NCBI GenBank assembly: GCA_022821725.1
Contig: JAJEDB010000089.1
Span: 4,074 to 68,073 of the forward strand
Length of the DNA stretch: 64,000 nucleotides
Direction: 5' to 3'
Origin: Candidatus Poribacteria bacterium
Lineage (GTDB): Bacteria > Poribacteria > WGA-4E > WGA-3G
The position numbers were made by a program, and so were the translations under genes. How positions within the stretch are numbered: position 1 is the stretch's first letter; the number at the start of each line of letters is the position of its first letter. This document shows positions 4,984-24,711 of the stretch, piece by piece. The notes beneath the pieces were generated by a model that worked only from the letters and a program-made list of their open reading frames with translations, ran no database searches and had not been told where the DNA came from.

Positions 4984-5050
4984 TGTTTCTTCGACTCAAA
5001 CACAAAGAACGTTAAAGTCCTAACTCACATTCCCTATCCGCAAGGTAAAA

Positions 5051-6898: not shown

Positions 6899-7086
6899 TT
6901 TTTAATTATTCCTTGCGGTTCGATCAAGTCGGATTGGAAGTTTGAAATGCCTTTCCGTATATCTAGCAGAAACACCCTATCAAAAACCTTGCGTGTTTTT
7001 GCAATGTAATACAAGGAATGGATTTAGTCTATTCCCAGACTAAATCCGGTATTTTTCCGTATTGTTGCAGGCTGCGTCTTCAGTTT

Positions 7087-7332
7087 CCCGTAGGTTGGGT
7101 TGAGCAGAACCAAGAAACCCGATGTTGATTCTCCAAACACATTTAAGATCCTACATGGTCATATAAGTCACGGATATAGCGAAACCCAACGGCAGACCGC
7201 CATGTTTATGAGCCCCTCACAATAAGGGCGTTGGGTTTCACTCCATATTTCTGAAACAGAAGTTGTATGAACATACTGCGATTTTTCTGTGAACCCGTAG
7301 TCTCTGGTTCTACCCGTTCAACCCAACCTACG
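7087..7332. repeat. ~245-bp element bounded by ~26-nt imperfect inverted repeats with a nested inner stem-loop (MITE-like or structured RNA candidate)
   Basis: Outer arms CGTAGGTTGGGTTGAGCAGAACC (7089-7111) and GGTTCTACCCGTTCAACCCAACCTACG (7306-7332). Inner stem GAAACCCAACG (7181-7191) pairs with CGTTGGGTTTC (7229-7239). Confidence 0.45.
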
Positions 7333-7407
7333 ATAAATCTCCTTCTAAAATTGACACCTATGCTGTCGTTAGGGAATCGCACCTACCGGGGAATTGCGTA
7401 AGTTCTA

Positions 7408-9249: not shown

Positions 9250-9261
9250 TTTTTTGCTCCA

Positions 9262-9299
9262 TTAAAAATAAAACCTACGGGGTTTAATCCGCAGGTTTT
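9262..9299 (-). terminator. Rho-independent terminator after sigma-fusion gene 1
   Basis: On the minus strand: AAAACCTGCGG-ATTAAACC-CCGTAGGTTTT, followed by TTTTATTTTTAAT. Confidence 0.5.
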
Positions 9300-9401
9300 A
9301 GAAAAAATCACTTAAAATTATCGGAACGAATTGTGTCCTACGAAAGCACTGGCACCAAATGCGTTTTCAAAACGCATCCGACGCCGGTTACGGAGCAGGT
9401 T

Positions 9402-12389
9402 CTATTCTCCTTCAAGCGAGATGTGCAATATTCCCCGATCTTCAGTAGCACTATAGAGTTTATTGTTAGCAATAGCGAGTGCATTGATTTCATCTGGCAC
9501 ATCTGAAGCAACCCGTTTCCATTGACGACGAGCGTCCAAATGATAGATGCCGGCATCGCCGATACCATAAACTTTCGTGCCCTCTACTGCAAATCTATCT
9601 ATAATAGTGTGTGCTCTCACGCTATTGGTGAGCACGTTCCAGTGTTCACCGGTTTGTGAACTCAAGACTCCAGCATCTGTTGACACATAGACGGTCGTTG
9701 CTGCAAAGGCTATCTCATTGAAGCAGGTAAAGCCAAGAGGCAGGTTTGGTGTGACGTCTCTCCAACTGTTCCCGCCATCAAGTGACTGAAACAACTTACC
9801 ATCTCGCTTGCCTACATAGACAGTTTCTCCTGAAACCGCTATCTTGAGTCCCTTTCTGGAGACACCATCAGACATGTGACTTGTATCTATCAATCCCGTA
9901 TTTATCCACTCTGGATCACCAAGTCTCCATTTGAACAGACTGCCTTTGTATTCCACGTAGAACACATCACGACTGACTGCAACCGTTTTGACTTCCACAT
10001 TTCCAGGAACAGGAGATGTCGTGATTGACGCATCGCCTTCTTTTGAGCTATCAGATGAGTGTTTTGTCTTTACCTTTGTGCCACTTGCCCACAATTCAGG
10101 AGATAACGTCCTATCATCAAAAGCAGGTATGCCTTGAATCGGACTGAGCGTATTACCATCTGTAGATAAGCGGAAAATTTTCAGGTTGTTGCCTTGACGT
10201 GCCACAAAATAAAGACGGTTGCCATCCACCATCAGTTTTGAATGAAAAAAGATATGGACGCGGGCATTGTTCTTATCTTTTTCTGACCATTCAAACTTAG
10301 TAGACTCTGCCCCAAAGCCCCCGTCAATCATAAGTTTTTTCCAAGACACACCTTCGTCGGTTGATTGATAAACCTCATAACCTGTATGCGCGTAGACTCT
10401 GTTGTTGAGGACAACCATATCCTTTAGGCGTGTGCCTGCCATCCCATCTACAAATAGGCCCCACGAGTTGCCACCGTCCGTTGTCCGAAAAATGCCGTAT
10501 GGACCCGTTTTGTAAAATGTCATCTCGTCCGCCACCACAGCTGGAAGCGTGTTGATCATGACCATATTCGTGTCTCCTGGCAGTTCTATCCAGGTTTGTC
10601 CGTTATCTGTTGAACGATATTCGTGCTTGACACTTGACGTGAAGAGTGTCTTACCAGCAGCCAAAACTGTTATGCCAGATGGTATCCCGTGATCATCAGA
10701 TTTATAACTCGGTGTTATTTCAGTCCACGATACCCCCAGGTCAGCTGAATGGAAAATCTTGAGTGCCTGCGACTCGACTTTTGGAACCATTTGTCCTGTT
10801 TTTATCGGCGTGAATCCCAACAGATTGGGACCGGTTCCAACATAGAGATTATTCTTAGACACTGTCAAGGAGTAGACGGCTCTTGCTGTCTCCACCGGCA
10901 ACTTCTTCCAAACACCTGAATCGAGACGATAGAGACCCCTCCCTGTACCCATAAATACTGTTTCTCCAACAGCAGCGACTGCGGAAATTAGCTCACCTGT
11001 CAATCCATTGTTAAGTGGATGCCATTGTGTTCCGCCGTCTATGGATCGGAAAACCCCTTCATCTCTAAGTGCCAGATACATCGTGATATGTGCTTGTGAA
11101 TTAGCATCTTGGGGTGTGCCTGTGATGATAAGTCCAACGGTGTGTCCCTTTGGGCGGGGACCCAGCGAATGCCATGACTCACCGCTATCAACCGAAGTGA
11201 ATATTTCATCCACAGAGGCGATATAGAGACGACCATTATGCTCTGCCATCGGCATTCGAGCGTTGCCAATAGGAACGTTGGCGTTGAGGCGCGTCCATTC
11301 GGTTGCGTCCGCGGCTAATCTGTATATTCCTGTGGGTGCGACAGTATAGACCGTTCCTCCAGAGGTAGCGAACATATCCTGTATACGTCCCCCTGGCGGG
11401 GAATTTCCCTGTGTCCACTGCGAGGAGGTCCCGAACTTAAGAGAATCCTCCAGCGCACTGGATTTCGTAACTGTTTCAGAGACCTGAATACCAGCACTGT
11501 TGCTTTTACCGGGGGCGGCAGCTCGGCCGAACTGATTTCGTATAGATGGCTTTGATACAATATCAAGCACGATGGGGGCATCGACAATTTCAATCGTGGG
11601 TTCGGATTCCGCCTCGAAACTATACGGCTTCTGAAATCTGGCAAGATACTGATTACTCACACCGAGCATAAAAATAACGAAAGCCACAGCGGTCCCGAAA
11701 GCCATCCACGGGATCAATGGCTTTCCAGTCGGAGCCGGTGTCGGCTGCATGTTAGCCACCTGTTCCATGATACGCTCGGTCACGTGGGCGGGGAATGGGA
11801 TGCTCCCGAGTGTTTCACTCACCAGAAGTTCCTCTCGTTGTTCCTGTAAACGTTTCCGTCCGCGGCGCAGTCGACTCTTAATTGTGTTCACCGACACCCC
11901 TAAGAGTTTCCCAATTTCCTTTGCTGTCATCTCTCCGAGAAAGTGGAGTGTTACCACTGTACGCTCACTCTCCGGTAGCTGCGCCAGGAGTTTTTTGACG
12001 AGTTCACGACGATGCTCGGTGACCTCCGTTTGTCGTTTTTCCGATACATAATGTGTGTAAGAGGATTCTTGGATTTCTTCCACGGGAGTGTCCTCCAATG
12101 AGTGCATCGCAAATTTGTTTTTGTTCTTTTCGAGCCATTTAAGACAGAGCCGACTGGCGATGACATACATCCATCCGGAAAACTGATTCGGATTCTTGAG
12201 TTGCGTGAGGTTCTTGTAGACTTGGAGGAAAGTGTCTTGGACAATCTCTTCAGCGATGTGAAAATCGCCAACTTTTCGCCACGCCAGTGCATGAATACCC
12301 TTTTGGTGCTTTCGGACTAAGGCATTGAATGCGGCGTCATCGCCGGACAAGATCCTACGAATCAGTTGAACATCGTCTTTTGTTTCCAT
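9402..12389 (-). CDS. Fusion protein: ECF sigma factor (sigma-70 regions 2 and 4), then a single TM helix, then a large BNR/Asp-box (SxDxGxTW) beta-propeller ectodomain
   Basis: The N-terminal 190 aa contain region 2 (FNALVRKH…DTFLQVY) and region 4 (ERTVVTLHFLGEMTAKEIGKLLGVSVNTIKSRLRRGRKRL). Hydrophobic segment LIPWMAFGTAVAFVIFMLGV. Then more than 10 repeats of S/TxDxGxSW (STDNGQTW, TTDGGNSW, STDEGVSW, SLDGGNSW…). Confidence 0.75.
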   Translation of the reverse strand: METKDDVQLIRRILSGDDAAFNALVRKHQKGIHALAWRKVGDFHIAEEIVQDTFLQVYKNLTQLKNPNQFSGWMYVIASRLCLKWLEKNKNKFAMHSLEDTPVEEIQESSYTHYVSEKRQTEVTEHRRELVKKLLAQLPESERTVVTLHFLGEMTAKEIGKLLGVSVNTIKSRLRRGRKRLQEQREELLVSETLGSIPFPAHVTERIMEQVANMQPTPAPTGKPLIPWMAFGTAVAFVIFMLGVSNQYLARFQKPYSFEAESEPTIEIVDAPIVLDIVSKPSIRNQFGRAAAPGKSNSAGIQVSETVTKSSALEDSLKFGTSSQWTQGNSPPGGRIQDMFATSGGTVYTVAPTGIYRLAADATEWTRLNANVPIGNARMPMAEHNGRLYIASVDEIFTSVDSGESWHSLGPRPKGHTVGLIITGTPQDANSQAHITMYLALRDEGVFRSIDGGTQWHPLNNGLTGELISAVAAVGETVFMGTGRGLYRLDSGVWKKLPVETARAVYSLTVSKNNLYVGTGPNLLGFTPIKTGQMVPKVESQALKIFHSADLGVSWTEITPSYKSDDHGIPSGITVLAAGKTLFTSSVKHEYRSTDNGQTWIELPGDTNMVMINTLPAVVADEMTFYKTGPYGIFRTTDGGNSWGLFVDGMAGTRLKDMVVLNNRVYAHTGYEVYQSTDEGVSWKKLMIDGGFGAESTKFEWSEKDKNNARVHIFFHSKLMVDGNRLYFVARQGNNLKIFRLSTDGNTLSPIQGIPAFDDRTLSPELWASGTKVKTKHSSDSSKEGDASITTSPVPGNVEVKTVAVSRDVFYVEYKGSLFKWRLGDPEWINTGLIDTSHMSDGVSRKGLKIAVSGETVYVGKRDGKLFQSLDGGNSWRDVTPNLPLGFTCFNEIAFAATTVYVSTDAGVLSSQTGEHWNVLTNSVRAHTIIDRFAVEGTKVYGIGDAGIYHLDARRQWKRVASDVPDEINALAIANNKLYSATEDRGILHISLEGE

Positions 12390-12421
12390 TAGAATACTCC
12401 CTGGTTATCAGATCCATTTAT

Positions 12422-12457
12422 AATTAAAGATACTATTTTGAAACCGAAAGGGTGCAT
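12422..12457 (-). promoter_or_regulatory. Candidate promoter (site 1 of a three-member family): ATGCACCCTT-N20-TTAATT, 33 nt upstream of the sigma-fusion-1 ATG
   Basis: The exact motif and exact 20-nt spacer are shared with sites at 15341-15376 and 22399-22434. A T-run lies upstream on the coding strand. Confidence 0.5.
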
Positions 12458-12739
12458 AACTTTGAAAAATAGCAGGAAATTGATCGCCTCTAAATTTATG
12501 ATACCAGAAATCCAGGGCGTTTTATAGTAAAATCCCAAAATATATGAACCGGTCTTCAATGAACAAAGTCCAACACCGCCGCTGGCAAAGATTGTATCCT
12601 CGCCCGATAATGTCCAAATAATTATGGACCTTACTATAAGCAAGGCTTACGCTAATTCCGCGCTTCTGTTGTTTGCTTAGATAGCATCCAGAGAAGCGTG
12701 TCCTGCGTAAGCCTCACAATATCGATGGAACAGAATATT

Positions 12740-13741
12740 TTAGTTGGACCCCTGCGGAGGAGCCGGTTCCTGTGAAGGCGTCGGTTTTTTGGGCGCGGTT
12801 AAAGTCTCTTGTATGTCCTCAATCTGCTTCCCAAGGTCTACAAGTTGTTGTAAATTCAACTCTTTTTTCGCACGTTCGAGTTGAGTCATGGCGCGTTCAA
12901 TTTGCGCTTTACTGTGTTGAATCTGAGCCTTGGCACGTTCAACCGCATCCTTACTGCGTTCGATGGCGAGTTTAGCGTTCTTTTTCCGCTGTTCAATCTG
13001 CGCTTTCGCATGTTTGAGTTGCTCTGTGCCGCGTTCGAGTTGTGCGTTAGCACGTTCGATCGCTTCTTTACTGCGTTCGATAGCAAGTTTGGCGTGCTCT
13101 TTACGCTGCTCAATCCGCACTTTAGCACGTTCAACAGTCTTCTTACCGCGTTCAATCTGTTCCACAGAGGCTTGGATCTTGGTGTGATCCTTTACCAACT
13201 TATCGATGTAAGCGGCTTTATAAGTTTCCCAATCATCCGTTGGTGGGATACCGAGGAATCCTGACTGCTGCAGATCTGGATTGTCTTCCAAGAGTGCCAA
13301 AGTGTAACGCTTCGACAACATGGATGCATACTCGAAAGAATCATCTATAGTGATGCCTTTATCCAGCAGGAGTTGAAGCCATTCCGCCCGTGGATACCTT
13401 GCATCTATCTCACTTATTGTGAAGGCACTGCTATAAGTCGTGGTTTTTGGACCTGTGAACTTACCGGACACACTCACGCTGGTCTTTGCCAAGCTCTGAT
13501 TGTAATCCGCATCTAACGCTTTCATCAATTCTTGCACATTTTGGGGACCGGTATACTTTTTATACACGGACGGTGCTTTTGCGTCGAGTTCAATGTGTTC
13601 ACGTAACTGCATATTCGACGCTCCAATTTCATGACCGTGTGCCGATAGATAGAGAGAGACACTCCAAAAAATGGCGAGTCCTAAAGTTGCAAAGAGTGTT
13701 AGTCTTGCCAGAGTTTTTCTCCCGTGAAAAATACTTTTCAT
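12740..13741 (-). CDS. Membrane-anchored or secreted coiled-coil protein with 11-residue tandem repeats (ERAKAQIE…/AIERSKEA…)
   Basis: RBS AAGGAG. N-terminal signal/anchor (LTLFATLGLAIFWSVSLYLSA). The C-terminal 120 aa consist of apolipoprotein-like 11-mer repeats encoded by 33-bp DNA tandem repeats. The Pro/Gln-rich tail is consistent with a flexible extended end. Confidence 0.6.
   Translation of the reverse strand: MKSIFHGRKTLARLTLFATLGLAIFWSVSLYLSAHGHEIGASNMQLREHIELDAKAPSVYKKYTGPQNVQELMKALDADYNQSLAKTSVSVSGKFTGPKTTTYSSAFTISEIDARYPRAEWLQLLLDKGITIDDSFEYASMLSKRYTLALLEDNPDLQQSGFLGIPPTDDWETYKAAYIDKLVKDHTKIQASVEQIERGKKTVERAKVRIEQRKEHAKLAIERSKEAIERANAQLERGTEQLKHAKAQIEQRKKNAKLAIERSKDAVERAKAQIQHSKAQIERAMTQLERAKKELNLQQLVDLGKQIEDIQETLTAPKKPTPSQEPAPPQGSN
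12880..13190. repeat. Intragenic ~33-bp imperfect tandem repeats (GCACGTTCAAYCG…CTTACTGCGTTCGAT…)
   Basis: All six frames stay open across this segment, which is why spurious overlapping ORFs 12881-13264, 12886-13155 and 12930-13187 appear. The 33-nt periodicity is visible by eye. Confidence 0.6.
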
Positions 13742-13879
13742 TTTTTTTCTCCTTCAGAGGCGTTATGTTGCCTCATGTTTGAAGTTTAACCTTTGACAAT
13801 CTGCGTCTGTATCCTAATGACGCGTTTAAACGCTGTGGGCAATTTGGCTGTTATTACGCCTTGTTATAAGTGCTTCGTA

Positions 13880-15292
13880 TTAAACATCGGAGCGGAAAAA
13901 TTTCAGAAACGCTACCGTTGTCAGTGCCACTGCAAAGAAACAGAGGAGTAGTACATCCGCCACCGATTGACGGAAGGTTTCTCCTAAGGTTGTCGTCTCC
14001 ACGCGAGGGGGTTGCGTGACTGTGACAGTATCCTCTGGTGTATATGTTCTTATAGAGATATGATCTTCGACTTTACTGAACAGATCCTCATCAAGGGCAT
14101 CATAATAGCGATCCGCCGCTTGGTAGTAACTATTTCTTTTTAGTTTCCCAGTCTCTGTTAGATTTGTAGCGAGATAGATGAGTGAGGCTGTCGGTGTGAT
14201 TCGGGAAAGGGTCTCACCGACCTGTTCTTGTCGTTGTGTTTCACGTTTATAATCCTGATCGAGTTTGTTAGCATAGTCTTGGAACTTCGATCGATATTCC
14301 GCTTCCAGAGGTTTCGTACATTCATCAACACGCTTCGCATTCTCCCCTGCTATAATTAGGTTTCCGTGCTCGTCCAGGGGCAACTCCATGATGACTTTCA
14401 TTTTTTTCTTGTCGATTTCAGCATTAAAATCGTCCCACATGGCTGTCTTTTCCATATAGACGCTCTGCAAAGTCCGTGTTGGGGCGATGAATTTCGCAGC
14501 GAGAAATCCAACGCGTGGCGTAATCAGCACAGCGAACACCCAGACAGTAAAGGCGACGATAAGTGCTGTTTTAGAATTATCTAAGTGGGTGGAAATTACG
14601 GTCCCAATCGCAAAAAATACCGCAATGTAGAGGAGTGAAACAAGCGTTAGCGTGAGCACTCGTGGAAAGATATCGGGTTCTCCTAAGGGAAACCCTTGCC
14701 AAACAAGCAGGAGTAAGCCGAACAGCAACGACACTAAAAACGGAACGACAAACACTACGTACCCACCAATTAATTTGCTCCATAAAAAGAGGTCGCGCGG
14801 GAGGGAGTTTGCCAAGGTAATCCGAAGCGTGCCTGCCTCTCTTTCTCCAGCAACGGCATCAAACGTAAACAGGAGTGCCAACAGACTGAAAACTGTTCCG
14901 ACGATAAAGAGAAAGTCGAGGTGTCCCAGCAGATAGGAGAGGGATGCCGAGACCAATGCCGGTGGCCCCTGTGTAATTCCATTGCGGGTCATCCCAAGAT
15001 AACTTGGAAGTGCCTCTCCTAATCCGTTTGCAAAGACACTTAAAGGTGTCGGTTTGAGAAATAGTTTAGATACCTCAATCTCCGGTTCCAGTGGTGTTTT
15101 CGGGTTCATTGTGGTTTCCTCGATATTCGTCAGTTTAGCGGCTTCCTGATAGTCAACGAGGTTCTGATTATACTTTCGATAGTTGATAGAGAGTGTAAGT
15201 GGTATGAGCAAAAGACACATCAGAAGTAGCGCGACGAACCGGACGCTTAAGAGATGATGCTGAATCTCTTTTTGAATCAATGTCATTAACAT
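13880..15292 (-). CDS. ABC-2 family transporter permease with a large intervening soluble domain
   Basis: RBS AAAGGAG. FDAVAGEREAGTLRITLANSLPRD is the conserved ABC-2 permease motif. There are six or more TM segments. No cognate ATPase gene is adjacent. Confidence 0.6.
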   Translation of the reverse strand: MLMTLIQKEIQHHLLSVRFVALLLMCLLLIPLTLSINYRKYNQNLVDYQEAAKLTNIEETTMNPKTPLEPEIEVSKLFLKPTPLSVFANGLGEALPSYLGMTRNGITQGPPALVSASLSYLLGHLDFLFIVGTVFSLLALLFTFDAVAGEREAGTLRITLANSLPRDLFLWSKLIGGYVVFVVPFLVSLLFGLLLLVWQGFPLGEPDIFPRVLTLTLVSLLYIAVFFAIGTVISTHLDNSKTALIVAFTVWVFAVLITPRVGFLAAKFIAPTRTLQSVYMEKTAMWDDFNAEIDKKKMKVIMELPLDEHGNLIIAGENAKRVDECTKPLEAEYRSKFQDYANKLDQDYKRETQRQEQVGETLSRITPTASLIYLATNLTETGKLKRNSYYQAADRYYDALDEDLFSKVEDHISIRTYTPEDTVTVTQPPRVETTTLGETFRQSVADVLLLCFFAVALTTVAFLKFFRSDV

Positions 15293-15340
15293 TTGGATTC
15301 TCCTTTCATTTTTCCGTGGAGGGGTATATGCCCGCTTTTA

Positions 15341-15376
15341 CAATTAATGATACAGGTTTGCGCCGAAAAGGGTGCA
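15341..15376 (-). promoter_or_regulatory. Candidate promoter (site 2): ATGCACCCTT-N20-TTAATT upstream of the ABC-2 permease
   Basis: Identical motif and spacing to 12422-12457, about 50 nt upstream of ATG 15292. Confidence 0.5.
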
Positions 15377-15599
15377 TAAAACAAAAAAATCTGGATTTTT
15401 ATCGGTAGGGGTTGATGACGGAGTGGTTTTGGAGAGGCGGGGTTAGAAAACCTACCAGTGATGGGAAGGATTATTGTTTGAACGTCAGGTTGTAGGCGAT
15501 TTTATTCAGCTGATTCTTGGGATTCAGGTTCTGGATGTGTGTGTATCCATTCTTGGAAGGTTGCTAAATCTTGAAAAAAAGAGCGTTTAAGTAAGCATA

Positions 15600-18059
15600 T
15601 CAAAATTCATAGATGAGTCCGACAGAAAAGGTAAAGCCAAGCTGAGGGATCTCCAAAGACTCATTGATTTCAAAACCGAGTTCGTCCGAGTCCTCCTCCA
15701 GTTCCAACGTTTCAAGTTCCCCAAGAAGTCTATCAGCCAAACGGAATCTTATTTTATTTTTCCGATTATAGACATTCAAAATTTCGGTATATGCCGTCAC
15801 AGGGAGGCCCCACAAAGTCCTTTTCTCACTAAAACGGAGATCCAAGCGGTGATAAGACGGAAATTCTGTCGGAAAAATCGCGCCTGCGACATCAGAAATG
15901 AGTGAGTGCATCCCTGCCGTTACAGGATCCTGAACCGTAATAAGATTGTTTAACGGCACTGCAGTGGTGCCACTGGCGTATTGCCACTTCGCCCCAATTT
16001 CTCTTTTTGTCGTAGGACTATAGTTGGCAACAATACTCACCACATGGGTGTTATCAAAAAGGAACGGTTTGTAAACGTCGTCCGGTGTCTCACGTCGTTC
16101 AGCATGGGTATAAGCATAAGACATCCATCCGAAAAACTTTTCGCTCACGCGGTGCCGCAGAAACATCTCCGCACCACTCACAAATCCTGTCCCTTGATTG
16201 AGATATGCGCTTGCAACCGCTGTATCCGAGTCATCAAAAAGTGCATCAATGTTGATGGATCTCGTGACTAATTTCTGCATGTCTTTGTAATAGAGCGCGA
16301 ATTTGAGTTCCGTTTGGGCGGACAATTCATGTTCCAATTCCATGATGTAATGCTCGGTTAGACTCGGTTTTAGGTCTCGGTTTCCATCCGCCTTTAGCAC
16401 TTGGTATGCCAAGGGACTCCGTTCATATCTACCGTAGGCAAACCGGAGCGTAGAGGTCGTTGGCAGTGTGAAACTCAGACTGCCGCGAGGTTGGATTGAT
16501 AGTTCATCTGTCAGATTGAGATAGTCGAACCGCACACCCAAGGCAATAGATAAAGGGGAGAGCAGATCATAGCGAGCCTGAAGGTACCCCTCGGCGCGCC
16601 GAAATGGGTAATTAAATTCGTCAAGCTTCTGTATCCATGACGGTTCTTCATCAAAATCTATGTTCTCCACAGAAGATGTATGTGTATAGCTTTTAGATGG
16701 ACTGAAAGCGAGAAGGAAGCCGGGTTCCAATTGAAGTTTCGGTGTTAATTTGTAGGACACGTCTTCGCGAAGGGTATACGTGGGTGTGTTGATCTTTAAG
16801 TTGTAGATGGATCCTTCACGCTCAGTCTTGCTGTCTTGACTTGAGGTGCCGCCGAAGTGGATATTGAGAAAATTGTGGGAACGCGTCAGGGAAAGATGGG
16901 ACGTGAGTTTATCTGTGAAATCGGAGCGTAGATGAATGCCTTCCGCTTCAAACCCGTTTTTGAAATAGGCGAAAACATCATCTGCTTCTTGGGTTTCTTC
17001 TGATCCAACACCGGAGAAGTCAAAGTGATCTGCCGCGCCTAAGCCGTTGAGCGTGAGATGGTGCTTTGGCGTAAGTTGATAGGTAAATTTGAGTTGATAG
17101 TCCGACCATGTAGGGAGGGTCCAATCGAAGAAAAGCCCAAGAATGAGGTTATGGATAGTGAATCGTCCGGCGATAGAGGCGTAGCCTTTGTCTCCGATTT
17201 TGGTTTCGAGAAACCCAGAGGGCGATATAATGTTCAGGTCGAGTGCGCCTGCCCACCGCTTTTCCAACCGTTCGCGCGAACGGATGTCAATAACTGATTG
17301 TGAATCTAACCCGAATTCGGCACCGTATCCACCGGCATAGATATGAATGTCCTCAATACTATGTGAGTTAATCGTTGAAAAAAGTCCGGCATAGTGAAAC
17401 GGATAACCGAGGGGGGTCCTGTCGAAATAGAGGAGCGTCTCCCCGGGCGGACTCCCCCGAATATAGAGGATCCCGAAGATATCGTTGGGGATACCGATGC
17501 CTGGCAGCGTCGTGAGTCCCTTAAGCGCATCACGTCCAGTCCCAGGGATCCGTATCAGTTCGCTGCCGCGAATTTCCTTGCGGCTCACCGTCGGGGGTAG
17601 CCGTTGTCCCTCTACAAAAATGGGTTCAAGCCGTGTTGCTGCCTCCGGACTATCGGGGATTTCGACAAACGTTCCTTCTGTATTGATGGAAAATCGCCTG
17701 CGGAGCGTCTCCCCTGCGCGAATTTCAATTGGAATTTCTGTGGATGTATTGTGAGTTGGATGGAAGATGGACAGTGTATATGCTCCGACGGGAATTTCAA
17801 TGAACCGAAATGCGCCATCTTTATCTGTTTTTTGAGACTGATCGGTTTCAACGATGCGGACCTCTGTTTCAACCAAGGGAACATTAATATCGCGTTGGTA
17901 GAGGGTGCCTTCTATATCACCTGTGCGTGGAAAGATTCGCTGATAGATGCTTCTTTTCGTTTTTGGGGATGTATCTTCTTTAGCATTGTCCGTTTCAGCG
18001 GAAACAGAAAACGGTATCATGAGCATAACACACAGAACAGCATATAAGCAAAATCTCAT
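15600..18059 (-). CDS. Outer-membrane beta-barrel protein, TonB-dependent-receptor-like, with an N-terminal carboxypeptidase-regulatory-like (CarbD) domain
   Basis: Signal peptide MRFCLYAVLCVMLMIPFSVSA. The CarbD-like stretch is GTLYQRD…VRIVETDQS…FRFIEIPVGAYTLSI. The sequence is long with beta-strand alternation and ends in a C-terminal aromatic, …GLIYEF. Confidence 0.6.
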   Translation of the reverse strand: MRFCLYAVLCVMLMIPFSVSAETDNAKEDTSPKTKRSIYQRIFPRTGDIEGTLYQRDINVPLVETEVRIVETDQSQKTDKDGAFRFIEIPVGAYTLSIFHPTHNTSTEIPIEIRAGETLRRRFSINTEGTFVEIPDSPEAATRLEPIFVEGQRLPPTVSRKEIRGSELIRIPGTGRDALKGLTTLPGIGIPNDIFGILYIRGSPPGETLLYFDRTPLGYPFHYAGLFSTINSHSIEDIHIYAGGYGAEFGLDSQSVIDIRSRERLEKRWAGALDLNIISPSGFLETKIGDKGYASIAGRFTIHNLILGLFFDWTLPTWSDYQLKFTYQLTPKHHLTLNGLGAADHFDFSGVGSEETQEADDVFAYFKNGFEAEGIHLRSDFTDKLTSHLSLTRSHNFLNIHFGGTSSQDSKTEREGSIYNLKINTPTYTLREDVSYKLTPKLQLEPGFLLAFSPSKSYTHTSSVENIDFDEEPSWIQKLDEFNYPFRRAEGYLQARYDLLSPLSIALGVRFDYLNLTDELSIQPRGSLSFTLPTTSTLRFAYGRYERSPLAYQVLKADGNRDLKPSLTEHYIMELEHELSAQTELKFALYYKDMQKLVTRSINIDALFDDSDTAVASAYLNQGTGFVSGAEMFLRHRVSEKFFGWMSYAYTHAERRETPDDVYKPFLFDNTHVVSIVANYSPTTKREIGAKWQYASGTTAVPLNNLITVQDPVTAGMHSLISDVAGAIFPTEFPSYHRLDLRFSEKRTLWGLPVTAYTEILNVYNRKNKIRFRLADRLLGELETLELEEDSDELGFEINESLEIPQLGFTFSVGLIYEF

Positions 18060-18373
18060 AAAAAGGTTTGGACCTCCACTTGGAACCTGAATTGCAGACT
18101 GTAACGCTCAATTAGACGTTCCAGTTGACACAGAGATCGCGTTAATCAACAGTCCGCAAAACAGCCAAGCCTATGACGAATCTTTAATAGGATTTACGCA
18201 ATTTTCCCATAAAACGCCACATATTGTGCTATTGGCGAGGTTAGGAGGGAAATCCGCAGAAATACCCTATCAAAGACCCCCAGCAAAAACACCTCGCCAG
18301 CAAGGAAGCTGCGTAAGTCCTGTTTAATTTCAACAACGGCTCGGCTGTAATGGTGAAATGGAATATCTTTCTC

Positions 18374-19168
18374 CTATGGATTCTGTGGATTTTGTTGAAA
18401 AAAAACGCCTTCAGTCCATCTCAGAAACACATCAGTATTCGTGAAATTATTGAGGATTTCTGCGGTTAGCGCAGGGTTGTGCACGGCGAGCCATAAAAGT
18501 CCATCATCTTTTCCGTGCTGCTCAAACTGTTCCTGTATGAAAAGCGCGTCCCTCTTTTCGGTTTCAGTTACGAAATGTTCAAGGGCAGGAAAGAATTCTG
18601 TTACTTGCTCTTTGTTTGGTATATGTATTTCCATCCAAGCCTTTATAGGTGCTTCATCAAGGACTGATAGTTTTTTTTCGAGCACAGCCAATATCGCCTT
18701 GAGAACGTTTTCGTCGTTTCCATCATGTATCATCTGATACAGCATCACGTTTGCACAGCGATACTCCAAAGTTAGCTGATGAACGATCGCTATGTCTTCT
18801 TCGTTGGATTTCCCGATAGATTCCTTCAAAAAGGGTTTGTATCTTTCCGGGTCAGGCTTTGCTACGTCGAGGTAGTCTGCTAACGTTTTAAACGGTTTTG
18901 CCGTCCGATATTCTTGGGTAAGAAAATCCACATACGTTTTAGAAGCTGTCACCTTACCCATGATGGTGAAATCTCCATCAAAAATGGGTTTCGGAAACAA
19001 CACCTTTAGTTTCGCAAACGTGTCTTCCGGTGTAGGTTTGGGGGGTATAGGTTCGGCAATAAGTTTTTCGACAGACGTTGTGTCAGTGTCGGGGTCTTCA
19101 GAGCATCCCAACAATTGAAAAGCAATCACAAAAAGCATAAAGACTGTGAAACGTAAAGAATGCTGCAT
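18374..19168 (-). CDS. Lipoprotein, hypothetical
   Basis: Signal peptide with lipobox FQLLGC|SEDPD. No recognisable domain. Confidence 0.5.
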   Translation of the reverse strand: MQHSLRFTVFMLFVIAFQLLGCSEDPDTDTTSVEKLIAEPIPPKPTPEDTFAKLKVLFPKPIFDGDFTIMGKVTASKTYVDFLTQEYRTAKPFKTLADYLDVAKPDPERYKPFLKESIGKSNEEDIAIVHQLTLEYRCANVMLYQMIHDGNDENVLKAILAVLEKKLSVLDEAPIKAWMEIHIPNKEQVTEFFPALEHFVTETEKRDALFIQEQFEQHGKDDGLLWLAVHNPALTAEILNNFTNTDVFLRWTEGVFFQQNPQNP

Positions 19169-19254
19169 TGTTTGTCCTTTTCGTGTTATCGGTGATAGGC
19201 GTTCGATGCCGTATGGACAGGCACGGATACCTGATTGGGGTGTTGATGTTGTGT

Positions 19255-19313
19255 AACATCAATAGTTTTCTTCTTCAAGCGAGACCTGAAACATCCCGCG
19301 CTTTTCCGTCACA
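19255..19313. repeat. ~60-bp duplicated fragment of the 3' end of sigma-fusion gene 2 (second copy 19386-19444, inside the gene)
   Basis: AACATCAATAGTTTTCTTCTTCAAGCGAGACCTGAAACATCCCGCGCTTTTC[C/T]GT is present twice, 131 bp apart. Confidence 0.7.
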
Positions 19314-19389
19314 ACGATGAATTACAAAAACAAGTTTACATCGTGTAGGGGTGTCCCTTGTGGGTGCCTGCAGCCTTAAATCTATAACA

Positions 19390-22335
19390 TCAATAGTTTT
19401 CTTCTTCAAGCGAGACCTGAAACATCCCGCGCTTTTCTGTTACAGCGTAGAGTGTGTCGCCGTTAATAACGAGAGAAATCACCCGACCTGGCACTTCTGG
19501 CGAGATTTTTTTCCAGGCACCGCGACGATTCAATTGATAGGCACCTTCATTGCCGGCACCGTAGACCCTGGTGCCGGATACAGCAATTCGATCCATAACG
19601 GTATGGCTCCCGGTTTTATCGGTGAGCGCTCGCCAATGCTCACCCGTTTCTGAGGTCAAGACCCCTGTGTCTGTCGCGACATACACTGTGGGTCCCGCGA
19701 AGACGATCGCTTTAAAGTGCTTGAAGCGCAGCGGCAGGTTTGCAGTTAGGTCTTTCCATGTGTTGCCACTATCAAACGATTGCAGGAGGTGTCCATCACG
19801 TTTTCCGACATAGACGGTTTCCCCTGAAACAGCAAGTGTGATACTTTTCTGGTTCTCTTTCACAGCATCGTCATCATTATCAGGGAGCTGGGTTTTATCT
19901 ATCAAGCCGGTGTTGAACCATTCTGGTTCACCGCGTTTCCAGCGGAAAAGCCGTCTCTTATATTCTGTGTAAAATGTCTCGCCGCTCACTGCGAACGCTG
20001 CAGAGAATTTGTCGAGTAGCCGGGTTGTATCTGCCAGACCCATCATGTCCATTATGGAGAGATTTCCACCGAAGGTAGTAGGTCCCTGAATAGGTATGAA
20101 CACGTCGCCATTCGCAGAGAGCCGAAAAAGGCGAACTTCATTTTGCGCGTCGAATGCTGCTGAGATACCGTAAAGCACACCCTCAGAGATCGCCAATTTT
20201 GCGGAAATCAAGATATCCGTAGGTGGGGTTAGGTCTGACGGCTCTAACGCAAGTTCTGCGGAATTCACAAGAAGCGTTTTCCAGGACTTCCCGTTATCAG
20301 CCGATTTGGCGATACCTAAGCCGGTATTTGCGTAGAGTGCGTTTTTGAATGTTACCAAGTCAAACACTTTAGTGCCGACCATCCCTTTCGTGAACGGGTG
20401 CCACGACTGCCCGCCATCCGTTGAACGGATCAGCCCGTCGCGAACTCCAACTTTGAGAAATGTGTTTTTATCCACTGTTAATGTAGGGAACATACTGAGT
20501 GTCACCGAATTCATCATCGCATTCATATCAGATGTGTCAAACCCTGAGTCTGTCCATGTTTTCCCGCCATCCGTTGAGCGGAACGTGGTGACACCTAAGG
20601 CCAATAACGTCTCTCCAGCCGCCAAGACTTTAACACCCGGTGACATTTTCATTGTGAACGAAGTGCTTTTCGGTGTTAGTTCCGTCCATGTATCCCCCAA
20701 GTCGGTTGAGTGGAAGATCTCCCATGAACTTCGGGTGTCGCTGCTCATCACTTGTCCTATGTATGCTCCCATTCCCTCAGGAGTGTTTAATTGAGAAAGA
20801 TCGGGACCTGTTCCAACATAGAGGTTGTTTTCATAAACTGCCAAGGAGTGGATGGCTTTAGTGGTATCGACCGGCAATTTTTCCCACATCCCTGCGCGCG
20901 AGCGGTAGAGTCCGTGGTTCATGCCTGCAAACACACTGTTTTCGATGGCAGTAAATGTGAGAATGTGAGTGTTTTCGCTGAGTATCCCATCGTTCATTGG
21001 CATCCACTGTTTACCGGCATCTTCGGATCGGAAAATCTGATTCTCAAGGGCGAGATATAGACCTGCGTCCGTTATTGCGAGTCCGATAGCATTTCCTTTT
21101 GGACGCGGACCCAGCGACTCCCATGTTTCGCCGCTATCGGTTGAAGCCCACACTTTATCAGTGGATACAAGGTAGAGGGTGCCGTTTCGTTCTGCCATGG
21201 GTTTCCAGTTGGAGTCTGCCGGAGCCTCTGGCGGCAATGGACTAACGTATGTCCATACAGATGCATTTGGTGTTAATCTATAGATACCCGCCGGTGAAGC
21301 GGTATAGATATCTCCTGTGGAGCTGAGGAGTAACCCCGATACATGTCCACCTTCTGGACCGTTTGCTTGTATCCACTGCTGTTTTGTTGATGGACGTGTC
21401 TCCTTCTCTATCTGCGCAGCGGCGAGCACAACAGGCTCCGAAACTTGTGGACCGGCCCCTCTACTTTTGCCAGTGGTATCAAAGCGTCCGGCTTGGTTCC
21501 GTAAATCGGGTTTTGCCTGTATATCAAGGACAATGGGGGCATCGATGATTTCAACGGTGGTTTCTGATCTGGCGTTCAGGTTATACGGTTTCTGAAAGTG
21601 GGCGAGGTATTGCGACCCGGCACCCATTATTAAAAAGATAAAGATGGCTGTTGCGGCGGAGATTGCCCAAGGTATTAAGGGTTTGCTGTTCGTAGGCGTT
21701 ACCGGCTTTAGGTTGGCAACTTGCTTTACAATGTTTTCGGTAAAAGTGACAGGTAAATCTACACTGCCAAGGGTTTCCCCCACGATGTCATCCTCCTGCT
21801 TTAAACGGTTGCGTGCGCGTTGGAGACGGCTTTTAACTGTATTTGGGGACACGCCTAAAAATTCACTAATCGCTTTATATGTCATTTCTCCAAGATAGTG
21901 AAGTGTCACAACTGTGCGTTCGCTCTCCGGCAGTTTCTCTAAGAGACTTCTGATGTGCCTTTGCCGGTGTTCGGCAGAGGCTTCCTCACGTTGTTCGTCT
22001 TCGTAGTGACGGTAGGAAGATTCTTCAATCTCCTCTCCACTGGTGGTTTCCAAGGATTCCATTGATGGTTTCTGCTTTCGATGCCAGTCAATACAGAGTC
22101 GATCGGCGATGACATAGAGCCATCCAGCGAACTGATTCGGATTCTTTAACGTCGAGAGTTTCTGGTATGCTTTAAGGAAGGTATCCTGTGTGAGTTCCTC
22201 GGCGGTATGGAAGTCGTCAACCTTCCGCCATGCAAGGGCGTGGACGCTTTTTTGGTATTTTTTTACCAGTCTGGTAAAGGCGTTTTCGTCCCCTGTCAGG
22301 AATTGATTGACCAGTTGTGCGTCTTCGTTTTTCAT
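19390..22335 (-). CDS. Second ECF sigma factor–TM helix–BNR/Asp-box propeller fusion (paralogue of 9402-12389)
   Basis: Region 2 (FTRLVKKYQKSVHALAWRKVDDFHTAEELTQDTFLKAY) and region 4 (ERTVVTLHYLGEMTYKAISEFLGVSPNTVKSRLQRARNRL). TM segment LIPWAISAATAIFIFLIMGAGS. Repeated STDGGKTW, STDLGDTW and SFDSGNTW. The C-terminal 150 aa are about 70% identical to gene 1. Confidence 0.75.
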   Translation of the reverse strand: MKNEDAQLVNQFLTGDENAFTRLVKKYQKSVHALAWRKVDDFHTAEELTQDTFLKAYQKLSTLKNPNQFAGWLYVIADRLCIDWHRKQKPSMESLETTSGEEIEESSYRHYEDEQREEASAEHRQRHIRSLLEKLPESERTVVTLHYLGEMTYKAISEFLGVSPNTVKSRLQRARNRLKQEDDIVGETLGSVDLPVTFTENIVKQVANLKPVTPTNSKPLIPWAISAATAIFIFLIMGAGSQYLAHFQKPYNLNARSETTVEIIDAPIVLDIQAKPDLRNQAGRFDTTGKSRGAGPQVSEPVVLAAAQIEKETRPSTKQQWIQANGPEGGHVSGLLLSSTGDIYTASPAGIYRLTPNASVWTYVSPLPPEAPADSNWKPMAERNGTLYLVSTDKVWASTDSGETWESLGPRPKGNAIGLAITDAGLYLALENQIFRSEDAGKQWMPMNDGILSENTHILTFTAIENSVFAGMNHGLYRSRAGMWEKLPVDTTKAIHSLAVYENNLYVGTGPDLSQLNTPEGMGAYIGQVMSSDTRSSWEIFHSTDLGDTWTELTPKSTSFTMKMSPGVKVLAAGETLLALGVTTFRSTDGGKTWTDSGFDTSDMNAMMNSVTLSMFPTLTVDKNTFLKVGVRDGLIRSTDGGQSWHPFTKGMVGTKVFDLVTFKNALYANTGLGIAKSADNGKSWKTLLVNSAELALEPSDLTPPTDILISAKLAISEGVLYGISAAFDAQNEVRLFRLSANGDVFIPIQGPTTFGGNLSIMDMMGLADTTRLLDKFSAAFAVSGETFYTEYKRRLFRWKRGEPEWFNTGLIDKTQLPDNDDDAVKENQKSITLAVSGETVYVGKRDGHLLQSFDSGNTWKDLTANLPLRFKHFKAIVFAGPTVYVATDTGVLTSETGEHWRALTDKTGSHTVMDRIAVSGTRVYGAGNEGAYQLNRRGAWKKISPEVPGRVISLVINGDTLYAVTEKRGMFQVSLEEENY

Positions 22336-22398
22336 CGAATGTCTCCAGGAACTTAAGAGTGAGCGTTTTTAACGCGCGACTATTGGACTGCTGTCACT

Positions 22399-22434
22399 AA
22401 TTAATGACGAGATTTAAAGAGCAGAAGGGTGCAT
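22399..22434 (-). promoter_or_regulatory. Candidate promoter (site 3): ATGCACCCTT-N20-TTAATT upstream of sigma-fusion 2
   Basis: Identical motif and spacing to 12422-12457 and 15341-15376, about 65 nt upstream of ATG 22335. Confidence 0.5.
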
Positions 22435-22707
22435 GACGAGAAAAAATTAGAGAAATTATATCATAACTATACTAAAATGTTTTTCTTGATATGGTGAGAT
22501 ATGGAATTTACGGGTTGTTTTTGGTGGGCATTCCTGTGTTTTTGACATTGAACTCACGTTTTAACGTAAATTTATAATTGGCGAGATCAAATTTTTCAAC
22601 AGAACGCGAATCAGCCAAACCTATAAGAAATTCTTCAATTCCCATAATGGCTTGGCTGTAATTATGAAAGGAATTTTTTCTTAGTTTACTTCCGTGTTTA
22701 AACAGGG

Positions 22708-23145
22708 TTAATCTTTTTGCAGCCAGAGGGTTAGCATCATAGCACCTGCTCCGATGAGAGTCATGCTCGGGTAATACCACCATAGGAACCGATTGCGTTT
22801 TTTCTTAATGGCATTCCTTTTCTTTTGGATCCTCACAATCGCTCTATTTCCTTTTTCACGGGAGGCAAGATCGTTGTTAACCAACATCCAACGTTGAACG
22901 AACAACTCATCTTCATTGAGTTTGTGGATTTCTGCTTGCCATTCATCCAACGGCGTTAGCCAGCGTCCAAAGGAGGTAACGCCCATTACAACGAGCGTTG
23001 GGAGTCCAATGAGAGGGTTGCTTTTTTCGCGAGTGAAGGAATCATTTGTTTCCTTGGTAGGTGTGGCGATTGATATATCCGCCAATAGGATACCAAATAT
23101 TAACGGACAGATAAGGGTTAAGCGCGACGCAAAGGGTAAGGTCAT
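22708..23145 (-). CDS. Small membrane protein, hypothetical
   Basis: ATG at 23145 is preceded by TAGGAGAGAAATC. There are two or three TM segments and a basic KKKRNRF loop. The longer ORF-track start at 23199 lacks an RBS. Confidence 0.45.
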   Translation of the reverse strand: MTLPFASRLTLICPLIFGILLADISIATPTKETNDSFTREKSNPLIGLPTLVVMGVTSFGRWLTPLDEWQAEIHKLNEDELFVQRWMLVNNDLASREKGNRAIVRIQKKRNAIKKKRNRFLWWYYPSMTLIGAGAMMLTLWLQKD

Positions 23146-23341
23146 GATTTCTCTCCTATGCTTTAGGGAAAAAAATACGGTTGATCCATTCCAGAACACA
23201 GTAGGACTGCCAAGTTATCTGGTGAAAATCGCATCGTCTTTTTTGTTGGATTCCGAGGTAAGTTGCTTCAGAAAAAGAGGGGTGATTTATTCATAAAATC
23301 ACTTGACATAACTGAGAAAAATCAGTATATTAAAGCACATC

Positions 23342-23983
23342 ATGAAACTCTTATCTATAAACGTCTCAAAACCGAAGCCTATTCAATACGGCGGTAAAAC
23401 GGTCCAGACAGGGATTTTCAAAGAACCCGTGTCAGGCACCGTCATGCTCAGAGAGAAGAACATCGACGGTGATGGACAAGGCGATCTGCGGGTCCATGGG
23501 GGCACCTATAAAGCCATCTACGGCTATCCGTTTGAACATTACACCCACTGGCAGCAGGCGTTGCAAAGAGGCGACTTGACCTACGGGCAGTTCGGCGAGA
23601 ATCTCACGGTTGAAGGCCTGCTGGAAACGTCAGTTTATATCGGTGATGTCTTTCAGATAGGGTCAACGGTGAAATTACAGATTACGCAACCGCGCGTGCC
23701 GTGCTTCAAGCTTGCGTATAAGATGGGACTGCCGGAGTTCCCGAAGCAGTTTTTAGAGAGTCGACGCGTTGGCTTCTATTTTCGAGTGCTTGAAGAAGGC
23801 GAAATCGCGGCTGGCGATGCAATTACACGCATTGAAGTTGCATCGGCGTCGATGAGCGTTACAGAAATACTCAACCTACGCTATTTTGATAGGGACAACC
23901 GCGAGAAAATCGCACGCGCCAGAAAACTACCTGCCCTCTCGCCGAGTTGGAAAAGGGATTTTACAAAAATTTTATCAAAATGA
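23342..23983 (+). CDS. MOSC-domain protein (YiiM-like)
   Basis: It has the MOSC beta-barrel core, GDLRVHGG…[12 protein letters not shown]…QPRVPCFKL, with a conserved Cys. Confidence 0.65.
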
Positions 23984-24711
23984 ATATTTTTAAGGCAACA
24001 ACCAAACGCGAAGCGAGCGAAGCAGCAGCACACCTCGCCAGTAGAAAACTTCGAGAGGCATTGGATGCGAATGGACATGCCCGTTTCATCGTTGCAACGG
24101 GGGCGTCTCAATTTGATTTCCTTGCCGCATTGACTGCTGATAAAACGATTGATTGGGACAACACAACGATGTTCCATCTCGACGAGTACATCGGCATTCC
24201 TGAGACACATCCCGCCAGTTTTCGCAAGTATCTGCGAGAACGTCTTGTGGACATCGCTCATCCCGGAACCGTCCATTTCCTAGACGGTGAAGCAGGCGAA
24301 CCGCAAGCCGAATGTGATCGACTCAATCGAATTATCTCGCAACATCAGATTGACGTGGCGTTCGTCGGTATCGGTGAGAATGGACATCTCGCTTTTAACG
24401 ATCCACCGGCGGATTTTGAGACAGAAGATCCGTATATCTTGGTGGAATTAGATGAGGCATGCCGGCTGCAACAGGTCGGCGAAGGCTGGTTTGCTGGGAT
24501 TGATGACGTGCCGACCCAAGCGATTTCAATGTCCATTCGCCAAATCGTGAAGGCGAAAGCGATTGTTTGCACTGTGCCGGATGAACGAAAGGCGGAGGCA
24601 GTGCGGAATTGCTTGCACGGCGAGATAACGCCAATGCACCCTGCTTCGATTTTACAGACGCATCCAGATTGTGCGGTATTTCTGGATGCGGGGTCGGCAT
24701 CGTTGTTGTAG
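23980..24711 (+). CDS. Glucosamine-6-phosphate deaminase / 6-phosphogluconolactonase family (NagB/Pgl)
   Basis: Its ATG overlaps the upstream stop (ATGA). Motifs FHLDEYIGI and [14 protein letters not shown] are diagnostic of the family. Confidence 0.7.

Follow-up and report, generated by a model that had tools for sequence, protein, structure and literature searches.

What reads three nearly identical stretches of DNA that stand in the same orientation ahead of three genes on a single contig? The question is raised by 64,000 nucleotides (nt) of a Candidatus Poribacteria genome (assembly GCA_022821725.1, contig JAJEDB010000089.1, positions 4,074 to 68,073; the whole of this stretch is referred to as the window), in which the pattern ATGCACCCTT-N20-TTAATT lies upstream of two paralogous genes and of an ABC-2 permease gene. 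Each of the paralogues, named here sigma-fusion 1 and sigma-fusion 2, encodes a sigma factor of the extracytoplasmic function (ECF) kind that is fused to a membrane helix and a large ectodomain. An earlier reading of the same DNA, the original prediction, took the motif for an autoregulated ECF promoter or an operator, defining a small regulon that would link both sensors to the permease operon. The analysis presented here makes it highly probable, on the grounds of sequence, that the three sites are the cores of ECF-sigma-dependent promoters read by the adjacent membrane-anchored sigma-fusions.

Three sites and the anatomy of the element

A pattern search returned three exact matches in the window, all on the minus strand (12422-12457, 15342-15377 and 22399-22434), against none in 100 dinucleotide-preserving shuffles, and the 10-mer ATGCACCCTT by itself occurs in the same three places and nowhere else in the window. 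The search confirms the common 10-mer, the exact N20 and the TTAATT of the original prediction, and the shuffles bear on its argument that identical spacing at three loci is not expected by chance, which holds. The T-run that it placed ahead of each site is borne out at all three. Its coordinates stand for the first and third sites, and the second, given as 15341-15376, was one base off. The distance to the start codons, put at 33-69 nt, was approximately right, the interval from the end of the site to the ATG being 32 nt for sigma-fusion 1 (ATG at 12389), 49 nt for the permease (15292) and 63 nt for sigma-fusion 2 (22335). The N20 is variable as described, but it is not fully unrelated sequence, since it holds a conserved A-tract and a -10-like block that reads GTATC in two of the sites and CGTC in the third.

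With the T of TGCACC counted as position 1, the element consists of an upstream T-tract at -12 to -7 that resembles an UP element, a -35 of TGCACC(C), a TTT at 8-10, a spacer A-tract at 18-21, a -10 of [G/C]T[A/G]TC or CGTC, an AT-rich TTAAT at 30-34 and a predicted start within the TATAA at 35-39 (Table 1). Judged by sequence, the G2-C6 portion of TGCACC is the equivalent of GGAAC, and the -10 is not the TTAATT but the GTATC/CGTC block just upstream of it. The last three bases of this block (motif positions 26-28), GTC or ATC, are a hallmark of ECF promoters. The wider -10 context is AGTATC at sigma-fusion 1, TGTATC at the permease and CTCGTC at sigma-fusion 2, where motif positions 24-28 read TCGTC. 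When C28 is taken as about -10, the start falls within TATAA and the T-tract comes to lie at about -45 to -50, which is where UP elements are located. Two other promoter types were considered and rejected. A sigma-70 promoter with TTAATT or the downstream TATAAA as its -10 has no conserved -35 at 16-18 bp, and a sigma-54 promoter (TGGCAC-N5-TTGC) does not fit an element that has TGCACC and no conserved GC at -12, 10 nt downstream.

Covariation of the promoter with sigma specificity residues

The promoter reading can be approached from the sigma genes alone. In 79 metagenome loci gathered by homology to the sigma-fusion and blind to the motif (29-86% identity), the sense strand upstream of the gene holds a match of at least 10 bits in 45 of the 74 loci with usable upstream sequence, and the antisense strand in none of the 74, the maximum there being 6.5. 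Most of the remaining loci have a recognisable variant 20-70 nt ahead of the start codon. Further, on clustering the sigma domains, each clade is found to have its own motif variant: TGCACCC...GT[AG]TC[TA]TTAAT in the clade of sigma-fusion 1, TGCA[CT]C[CT]...[AT]CGTCA[TC]TAAT in that of sigma-fusion 2 (loci L023, L140, L141, L143 and L153), and TGCAACC, TGTAACC, TGAGAC or TGCACCA with GCGTCACTATA in other clades.

It has been established by experiment that N84 of RpoE sets the promoter bases at -13/-12, R171 the base at -31, S172 that at -34 and F175 that at -32 (Todor et al., 2020, PMC7776599). Residues at these four positions covary with the motif among the Poribacteria paralogues, 84 with motif positions 24-26, 171 with 6, 172 with 3 and 175 with 5. 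When the sigma domain is aligned to RpoE and given its numbering, K84, K171, S172 and R175 of the window correspond to N84, R171, S172 and F175 of RpoE. Lys or Arg at residue 84 goes with GTATC (20 of 20), Asn with GTGTC or GGTC, Asp with [A/T/C]CGTC or AGTC, and Thr, Ala or Ser with GCGTC (20 of 20); Lys at 171 goes with C at motif position 6 and Thr, Asn or Ser with G (5 of 5); Ser at 172 goes with C3 and Ile or Leu with T3 (2 of 2); and Arg at 175 goes with C5 in about 42 of 48 and Ser, Gln or His mostly with A5, all of these being raw counts that ignore shared ancestry. The two genes of the window match their promoters by subtype, sigma-fusion 1 having Lys84 (in the context RLCLKW) with GTATC and sigma-fusion 2 having Asp84 (RLCIDW) with CGTC. 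Because the covarying pairs are established contact pairs, it would be difficult to account for the covariation if the sigmas did not each read the promoter ahead of their own gene. In the published specificity code Arg175 goes with T, whereas here it goes with C (PMC7776599).

The covariation also bears on the operator that had been offered beside the promoter. A separate DNA-binding regulator, whether repressor or activator, coordinating the three operons would make sense of the length of the element (about 55 bp) and of the conserved block past the -10 (TTAAT-TATAAAAGG), which is superfluous to an ECF model and where a second factor may bind. The element, however, shows neither dyad nor direct-repeat symmetry, both of its main blocks are of the ECF type in sequence and spacing, its orientation relative to the downstream gene is strict, and its variable bases follow the DNA-contact residues of sigma, an outcome that a third-party regulator would not yield. 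We therefore consider an operator improbable. The autoregulated ECF promoter, on the other hand, is supported by orientation, by its placement upstream of sigma genes and by the covariation.

Distribution and placement across the phylum

The pattern TGCACCCTT-N17-TC-N-TTAAT, a core of 16 bases, was searched in one genome per species (185,579 species), and the loci were read as 8-23-kb pieces. The scan returned at least 117 stretches. Among the matches listed, to which the counts in this section refer, 74 come from Poribacteria, another three are contigs that show the extended motif in full, and the remaining 40 belong to a scatter of unrelated taxa. At the positions that the pattern left free, the 96 distinct Poribacteria sites hold about 28 bits, with conservation in the T-tract at -12 to -7, the TTA just before the core, T10, the A-tract at 18-21, G24-T25-R26 and the TATARAAGG after TTAAT, whereas the 40 matches from other taxa hold no information at the unforced positions. 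An artefact of the query pattern was considered and rejected, as a scan on the unspecified positions alone finds further Poribacteria sites with near-consensus cores. Spacing is invariant in the 96 sites (TGCACC, N16 to yGTR, N19 to GTC), and all of them have GTC or ATC in the -10, the TC being forced by the pattern and G/A26 unforced in 90 of the 96. Spacers of 14-18 bp have been reported for ECF promoters (PMC5758882, PMC7776599).

Placement distinguishes the Poribacteria sites from chance matches. Although 85% of the bases lie inside open reading frames of at least 150 codons, 86 of the 99 Poribacteria sites listed are wholly outside such frames, as against 32 of the 40 non-Poribacteria matches that fall inside them. 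The genome-wide search with a listing of downstream genes that accompanied the original prediction has thus been carried out, and it finds the motif mostly between genes rather than at many intragenic sites. Of 85 evaluable sites, 83 aim into a downstream gene on the same strand, and none opposes both neighbours. Genes of the sigma family are by far the commonest to follow the motif: one stands first at 28 of about 95 sites and second at about 10 more, and about 40% of the sites sampled precede a gene of this family. An ABC-2 permease comes first at 13 sites, always behind a -10 of the ATC type (GTATC, GGATC or AGATC). The other downstream genes encode ABC ATPases, MacB-like, TonB-dependent-like, LamG, DUF1080, PD40, WD40, Kelch and FG-GAP proteins, and also TPR-protease, Reg_prop-SpoIIE, patatin and TIR proteins. 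Such a profile is, as predicted from sequence, that of an envelope and surface regulon with autoregulation, unlike that of a housekeeping promoter. Overall, the motif forms the core of an oriented element of about 55 bp and would represent a phylum-wide promoter class rather than a private regulon of three sites; the small regulon first proposed gives way to a class found throughout the phylum ahead of many genes for envelope and surface proteins.

Could such a widespread element simply be the general housekeeping promoter of Poribacteria, read by the primary sigma factor and of unusual consensus, like the -33/-7 promoter of Bacteroidota? It is found phylum-wide ahead of many functionally different genes, and the primary-sigma consensus of the phylum may differ from TTGACA/TATAAT. 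However, only 3 of about 45 intergenic regions of the window have the motif, and a position-weight-matrix scan of the 64 kb returned no site beyond the three and no weaker copies. Among the downstream genes there is a strong bias to this ECF family, to ABC-2 permeases and to proteins of the envelope or surface, and the motif variants follow the ECF clades and the ECF specificity residues. A TTGACA-N17-TATAAT-like pair is absent from the three sites, and the total of such pairs in the region equals that in shuffles, the consensus used being one that may not be that of Poribacteria. A housekeeping promoter is, in our view, highly improbable.

Just as improbable is a dispersed repeat, whether a miniature mobile element or one resembling repetitive extragenic palindromes (REP-like), or a structured 5' leader RNA. 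The many copies per genome with extended similarity and the transposase genes beside some of them (L003, L109) would be in keeping with such an origin. Conservation, however, ends abruptly at -12 and +43, the spacer inside the element varies and terminal repeats are absent. Copies occupy orthologous places in different species, the predicted start has most of the conserved element upstream of it, and the covariation is with a protein and not inside the sequence. No Rfam family matches the element, a search of window positions 5000-24000 giving no relevant match at E <= 1.

The sigma sensors, their mode of action and their neighbours

In the mechanism proposed for these promoters, RNA polymerase would recognise them by means of the sigma domain of an adjacent sigma-sensor fusion, which is anchored in the membrane. 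Sigma-fusion 1, with Lys at the position of RpoE Asn84, would read its own promoter and that of the permease operon, both of them GTATC, and sigma-fusion 2, with Asp at this position, would read its own CGTC promoter. Each sensor, once activated, would amplify itself, giving separate self-amplifying loops, and the common -35 would leave room for some cross-talk between the two. By analogy with IutY and the ECF52 class, the tethered sigma may stay inactive and be released from the membrane only when the propeller receives a signal; the freed sigma domain could then bind core polymerase and transcribe its own gene and its targets. The double-propeller ectodomain may sense a glycan-like ligand. 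The permease operon is most likely under sigma-fusion 1 and not under sigma-fusion 2, because its -10 is GTATC and all 13 related permease promoters are of the ATC type. The regulon that was thought to join both sensors to the permease operon would accordingly keep sigma-fusion 1, probably alone, and lose sigma-fusion 2 with its CGTC.

Several points weigh against reading the sites as ECF promoters under the control of the adjacent sensors. Counted from the -35 C, the GTC lies at a distance of 19 nt, which exceeds that in E. coli sigma-E numbering by one, and the -35 of the window clade contains CAC/ACC and not the canonical AAC; GCAAC or GTAAC is found in sister clades. Past the -10, a block that reads W-TTAAT-TATARAAGG equals the -35 and -10 in conservation. 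It is clade-specific and is conserved at non-sigma target promoters too. It goes beyond a simple ECF -35/-10 model and may reflect contacts of the holoenzyme at the start site or a second factor. Start sites and the dependence on sigma in vivo are inferred from sequence, and the raw nature of the covariation counts belongs here as well. Moreover, a tethered sigma needs to be released or to act at the membrane, and Pfam identified no protease, cleavage site or anti-sigma domain. Finally, an AlphaFold model of the full sigma-fusion 1, built on 32 homologues, has low confidence in the sigma and linker part and is uninformative on whether the linker masks sigma.

Table 1. Features of the window discussed in the text, with predicted promoter parts given from upstream to downstream.
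Feature	Position	Strand	Description
Predicted promoter of sigma-fusion 1	12414..12469	-	T-tract 12469-12465; -35 TGCACC 12456-12451, then C; TTT 12449-12447; A-tract 12439-12436; -10 GTATC 12433-12429; TTAAT 12427-12423; predicted start region TATAA 12422-12418; conserved downstream block 12414-12428
Predicted promoter of ABC-2 permease operon	15334..15389	-	T-tract 15389-15383; -35 TGCACC 15376-15371; -10 GTATC 15353-15349; TTAAT 15347-15343; predicted start region 15342-15338; conserved downstream block 15334-15348
Predicted promoter of sigma-fusion 2	22391..22446	-	T-tract 22446-22441; -35 TGCACC 22433-22428; motif positions 24-28 at 22410-22406; -10 CGTC 22409-22406; TTAAT 22404-22400; predicted start region 22399-22395; conserved downstream block 22391-22405
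Sigma-fusion 1, 995 aa	9402..12389	-	Pfam, NCBIfam, PDB, AlphaFold, Foldseek; aa 330-995 (modelled double beta-propeller) at 9402-11402
333-aa protein	12740..13741	-	Weak coiled-coil-like match; downstream of permease
ABC2_membrane_2 permease, 470 aa	13880..15292	-	Pfam PF12679 at 1e-30; first gene after middle promoter
Sigma-fusion 2, 981 aa	19390..22335	-	Paralogue of sigma-fusion 1, architecture alike
Juxtamembrane segment of sigma-fusion 1	11548-11652	-	aa 247-281
TonB-dependent-like gene and 264-aa unannotated gene	15600-19168	-	Between sigma-fusion 2 and permease promoter
Terminator-like hairpin	9300-9269	-	12-bp stem and T-run
ABC exporter genes	7408-9249, 5051-6898		Downstream of sigma-fusion 1

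The two sigma-fusions are 46% identical over their full length. Sigma-fusion 1 consists of ECF sigma regions 2 and 4 (amino acids, aa, 1-187), a short linker, one membrane helix (about aa 229-251) and a double beta-propeller (aa 330-995). Pfam places Sigma70_r2 and Sigma70_r4_2 within aa 1-187, and TIGR02937 (sigma70-ECF) is matched at 1e-27 and 5e-32. Having regions 2 and 4 only, without region 1.1 or 3, the fusions fall into the ECF group (sigma-70 group 4). The best sequence match of the sigma domain in PDB is B. subtilis SigW (5wuq, 5e-23), followed by E. coli RpoE, and SigE is matched as well. In both fusions a BNR/Sortilin-like region lies C-terminal to the membrane helix. The AlphaFold model is confident for aa 330-995, which form the double beta-propeller, and Foldseek relates the ectodomain model to GH74 xyloglucanases and to the periplasmic sensors of Bacteroides hybrid two-component systems (HTCS), with E values from 1e-16 to 4e-22. 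The modelled fold hints at a carbohydrate ligand. No anti-sigma domain (zf-HC2, RskA or FecR-like) was matched by Pfam or NCBIfam between region 4 and the helix, a gap of only about 40 residues. Just beyond the membrane, a periplasmic segment, QYLARFQKPYSFEAxSEPTIEIVDAPIVLDIxxKP, is shared by both fusions and is nearly invariant among paralogues that are otherwise 31-80% identical; its sequence makes it a candidate processing or regulatory site.

It is useful to set the system against those already known. The promoters of the B. subtilis SigW/SigV/SigM/SigX class read tGAAACnTTTt...CGTA/CGTC and have their T-tract between -30 and -26 (Gaballa et al., 2017, PMC5758882). The Poribacteria element is likewise bipartite, with a TG-N-A-N-C -35 that is followed one base later by a T-tract (here TGCACC-C-TTT) and with 16 nt from the -35 to a yGT[A/G] -10; it too stands directly ahead of the sigma's own gene, and its -10 subtypes, CGTA-like versus CGTC, separate paralogous sigmas. 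It differs in its -35, TGCACC instead of TGAAAC, in a -10 extended to GTATC/GTGTC and in about 15 bp of further conserved sequence downstream, and the Poribacteria sigma is fused to a membrane helix and an ectodomain of about 650 aa rather than being held by a separate anti-sigma factor.

Fusions of an ECF sigma with a transmembrane sensor or anti-sigma part are known from IutY of Pseudomonas putida (ECF243), SCO4117 of Streptomyces coelicolor (ECF52) and ECF48/53 (PMC8999054). As in IutY and ECF52, one polypeptide has an ECF sigma at its N-terminus, a single membrane helix and an extracytoplasmic domain for ligand binding, and no anti-sigma gene is adjacent; by this analogy, activation by regulated proteolysis is plausible (PMC8999054). 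In contrast to these, Pfam finds no zinc-finger or other anti-sigma domain between region 4 and the helix in the Poribacteria fusions, the ectodomain is predicted to be a GH74-like double beta-propeller, and there are many paralogues per genome, with tandem arrays. The modelled tandem seven-bladed propellers resemble those of the Bacteroides HTCS sensors (BT4663, BT4673) and of GH74 xyloglucanases; however, identity is only 10-16%, and the output here is a sigma factor, not a kinase with an AraC-type regulator. Double-propeller domains of the HTCS sense glycan fragments.

The mechanism is of a known kind, ECF autoregulation being a textbook one, and the family and its promoter code appear to be undescribed in the literature searched. 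No paper was found there that links Poribacteria with ECF sigma factors or describes BNR-fused ECFs, and the main text of the ECF reclassification paper does not mention Poribacteria. At least 6,791 homologues of the sigma-fusion reach E <= 1e-10 among 8,000 candidates scored, the named ones being Candidatus Poribacteria. A broader proposal, which we regard as possible though doubtful, is that Poribacteria rely on a very large family of 'one-component' ECF sigma sensors, each in one polypeptide with a helix-tethered GH74-like double propeller that is possibly a glycan sensor. Their promoter code would have diversified at the canonical specificity positions into self-amplifying and partly orthogonal pairs of sigma and promoter, through which envelope, transport and 'eukaryote-like' surface proteins are controlled, and the conserved start-site block would add a further shared layer of control. 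If this were true, these sponge symbionts would sense the host matrix mainly through this family. With the element, an uncultivated phylum of sponge symbionts would obtain its first promoter motif and predicted regulon, and a link would be drawn from propeller sensors anchored in the membrane to ABC-2 exporters and to numerous surface or repeat proteins thought to mediate host interaction. A sigma domain of about 190 aa together with a promoter of about 55 bp, in which residue 84, as Lys, Asn, Asp or Thr, is paired with the -10 variants GTATC, GTGTC and CGTC, could also serve as orthogonal switches.

The neighbourhood is kept in other genomes. Five orthologous loci (L001-L005, 65-89% protein identity) retain the order of ABC-2 permease, gene of about 300 aa and sigma-fusion; they also keep the motif before the permease and sigma genes with both blocks intact and the spacer drifting. 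The promoter of sigma-fusion 1 is conserved in orthologues at L002, L003, L005, L020, L052, L123 and others, and at some loci a PD40 or DUF1080-type gene stands between motif and sigma gene. The 333-aa protein of the window matched no Pfam family. Its gene is probably the second of the permease operon, because an unannotated gene of about 300 aa follows the ABC-2 permease in L001-L005; co-transcription is presumed from this arrangement. The pair of permease and unannotated gene is tandemly duplicated beside the sigma-fusion in L002 (4610-9570), L003 (5854-9690) and L005 (15019-19627), and the two permease genes of L003 have one promoter copy each. No ATPase gene adjoins the permease in the window; elsewhere promoter copies precede ABC ATPase genes (L031, L055, L065 and L095).

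A few further observations concern the surroundings of the sigma genes. The terminator-like hairpin between sigma-fusion 1 and the ABC exporter genes suggests, as a feature of the sequence, that sigma-fusion 1 is monocistronic and that the exporter genes form a separate transcription unit. The TonB-dependent-like gene and the 264-aa gene that lie between sigma-fusion 2 and the permease promoter are both without a copy of the motif; related TonB-dependent-like genes elsewhere (L007, L104) do have the promoter. A DDE transposase gene lies between a promoter copy and an ABC-2 permease gene in L003 (4668-5854), and another lies directly downstream of a promoter copy in L109 (about 6507-7714); both look like insertions that uncouple the promoter from its gene. 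Head-to-tail arrays of two to three sigma-fusion paralogues occur in L155, L158, L162, L187 and L198, each gene with its own clade-specific variant of the promoter, and a single metagenome contig of 552 kb (Ga0209543_1000003) carries at least seven paralogues.

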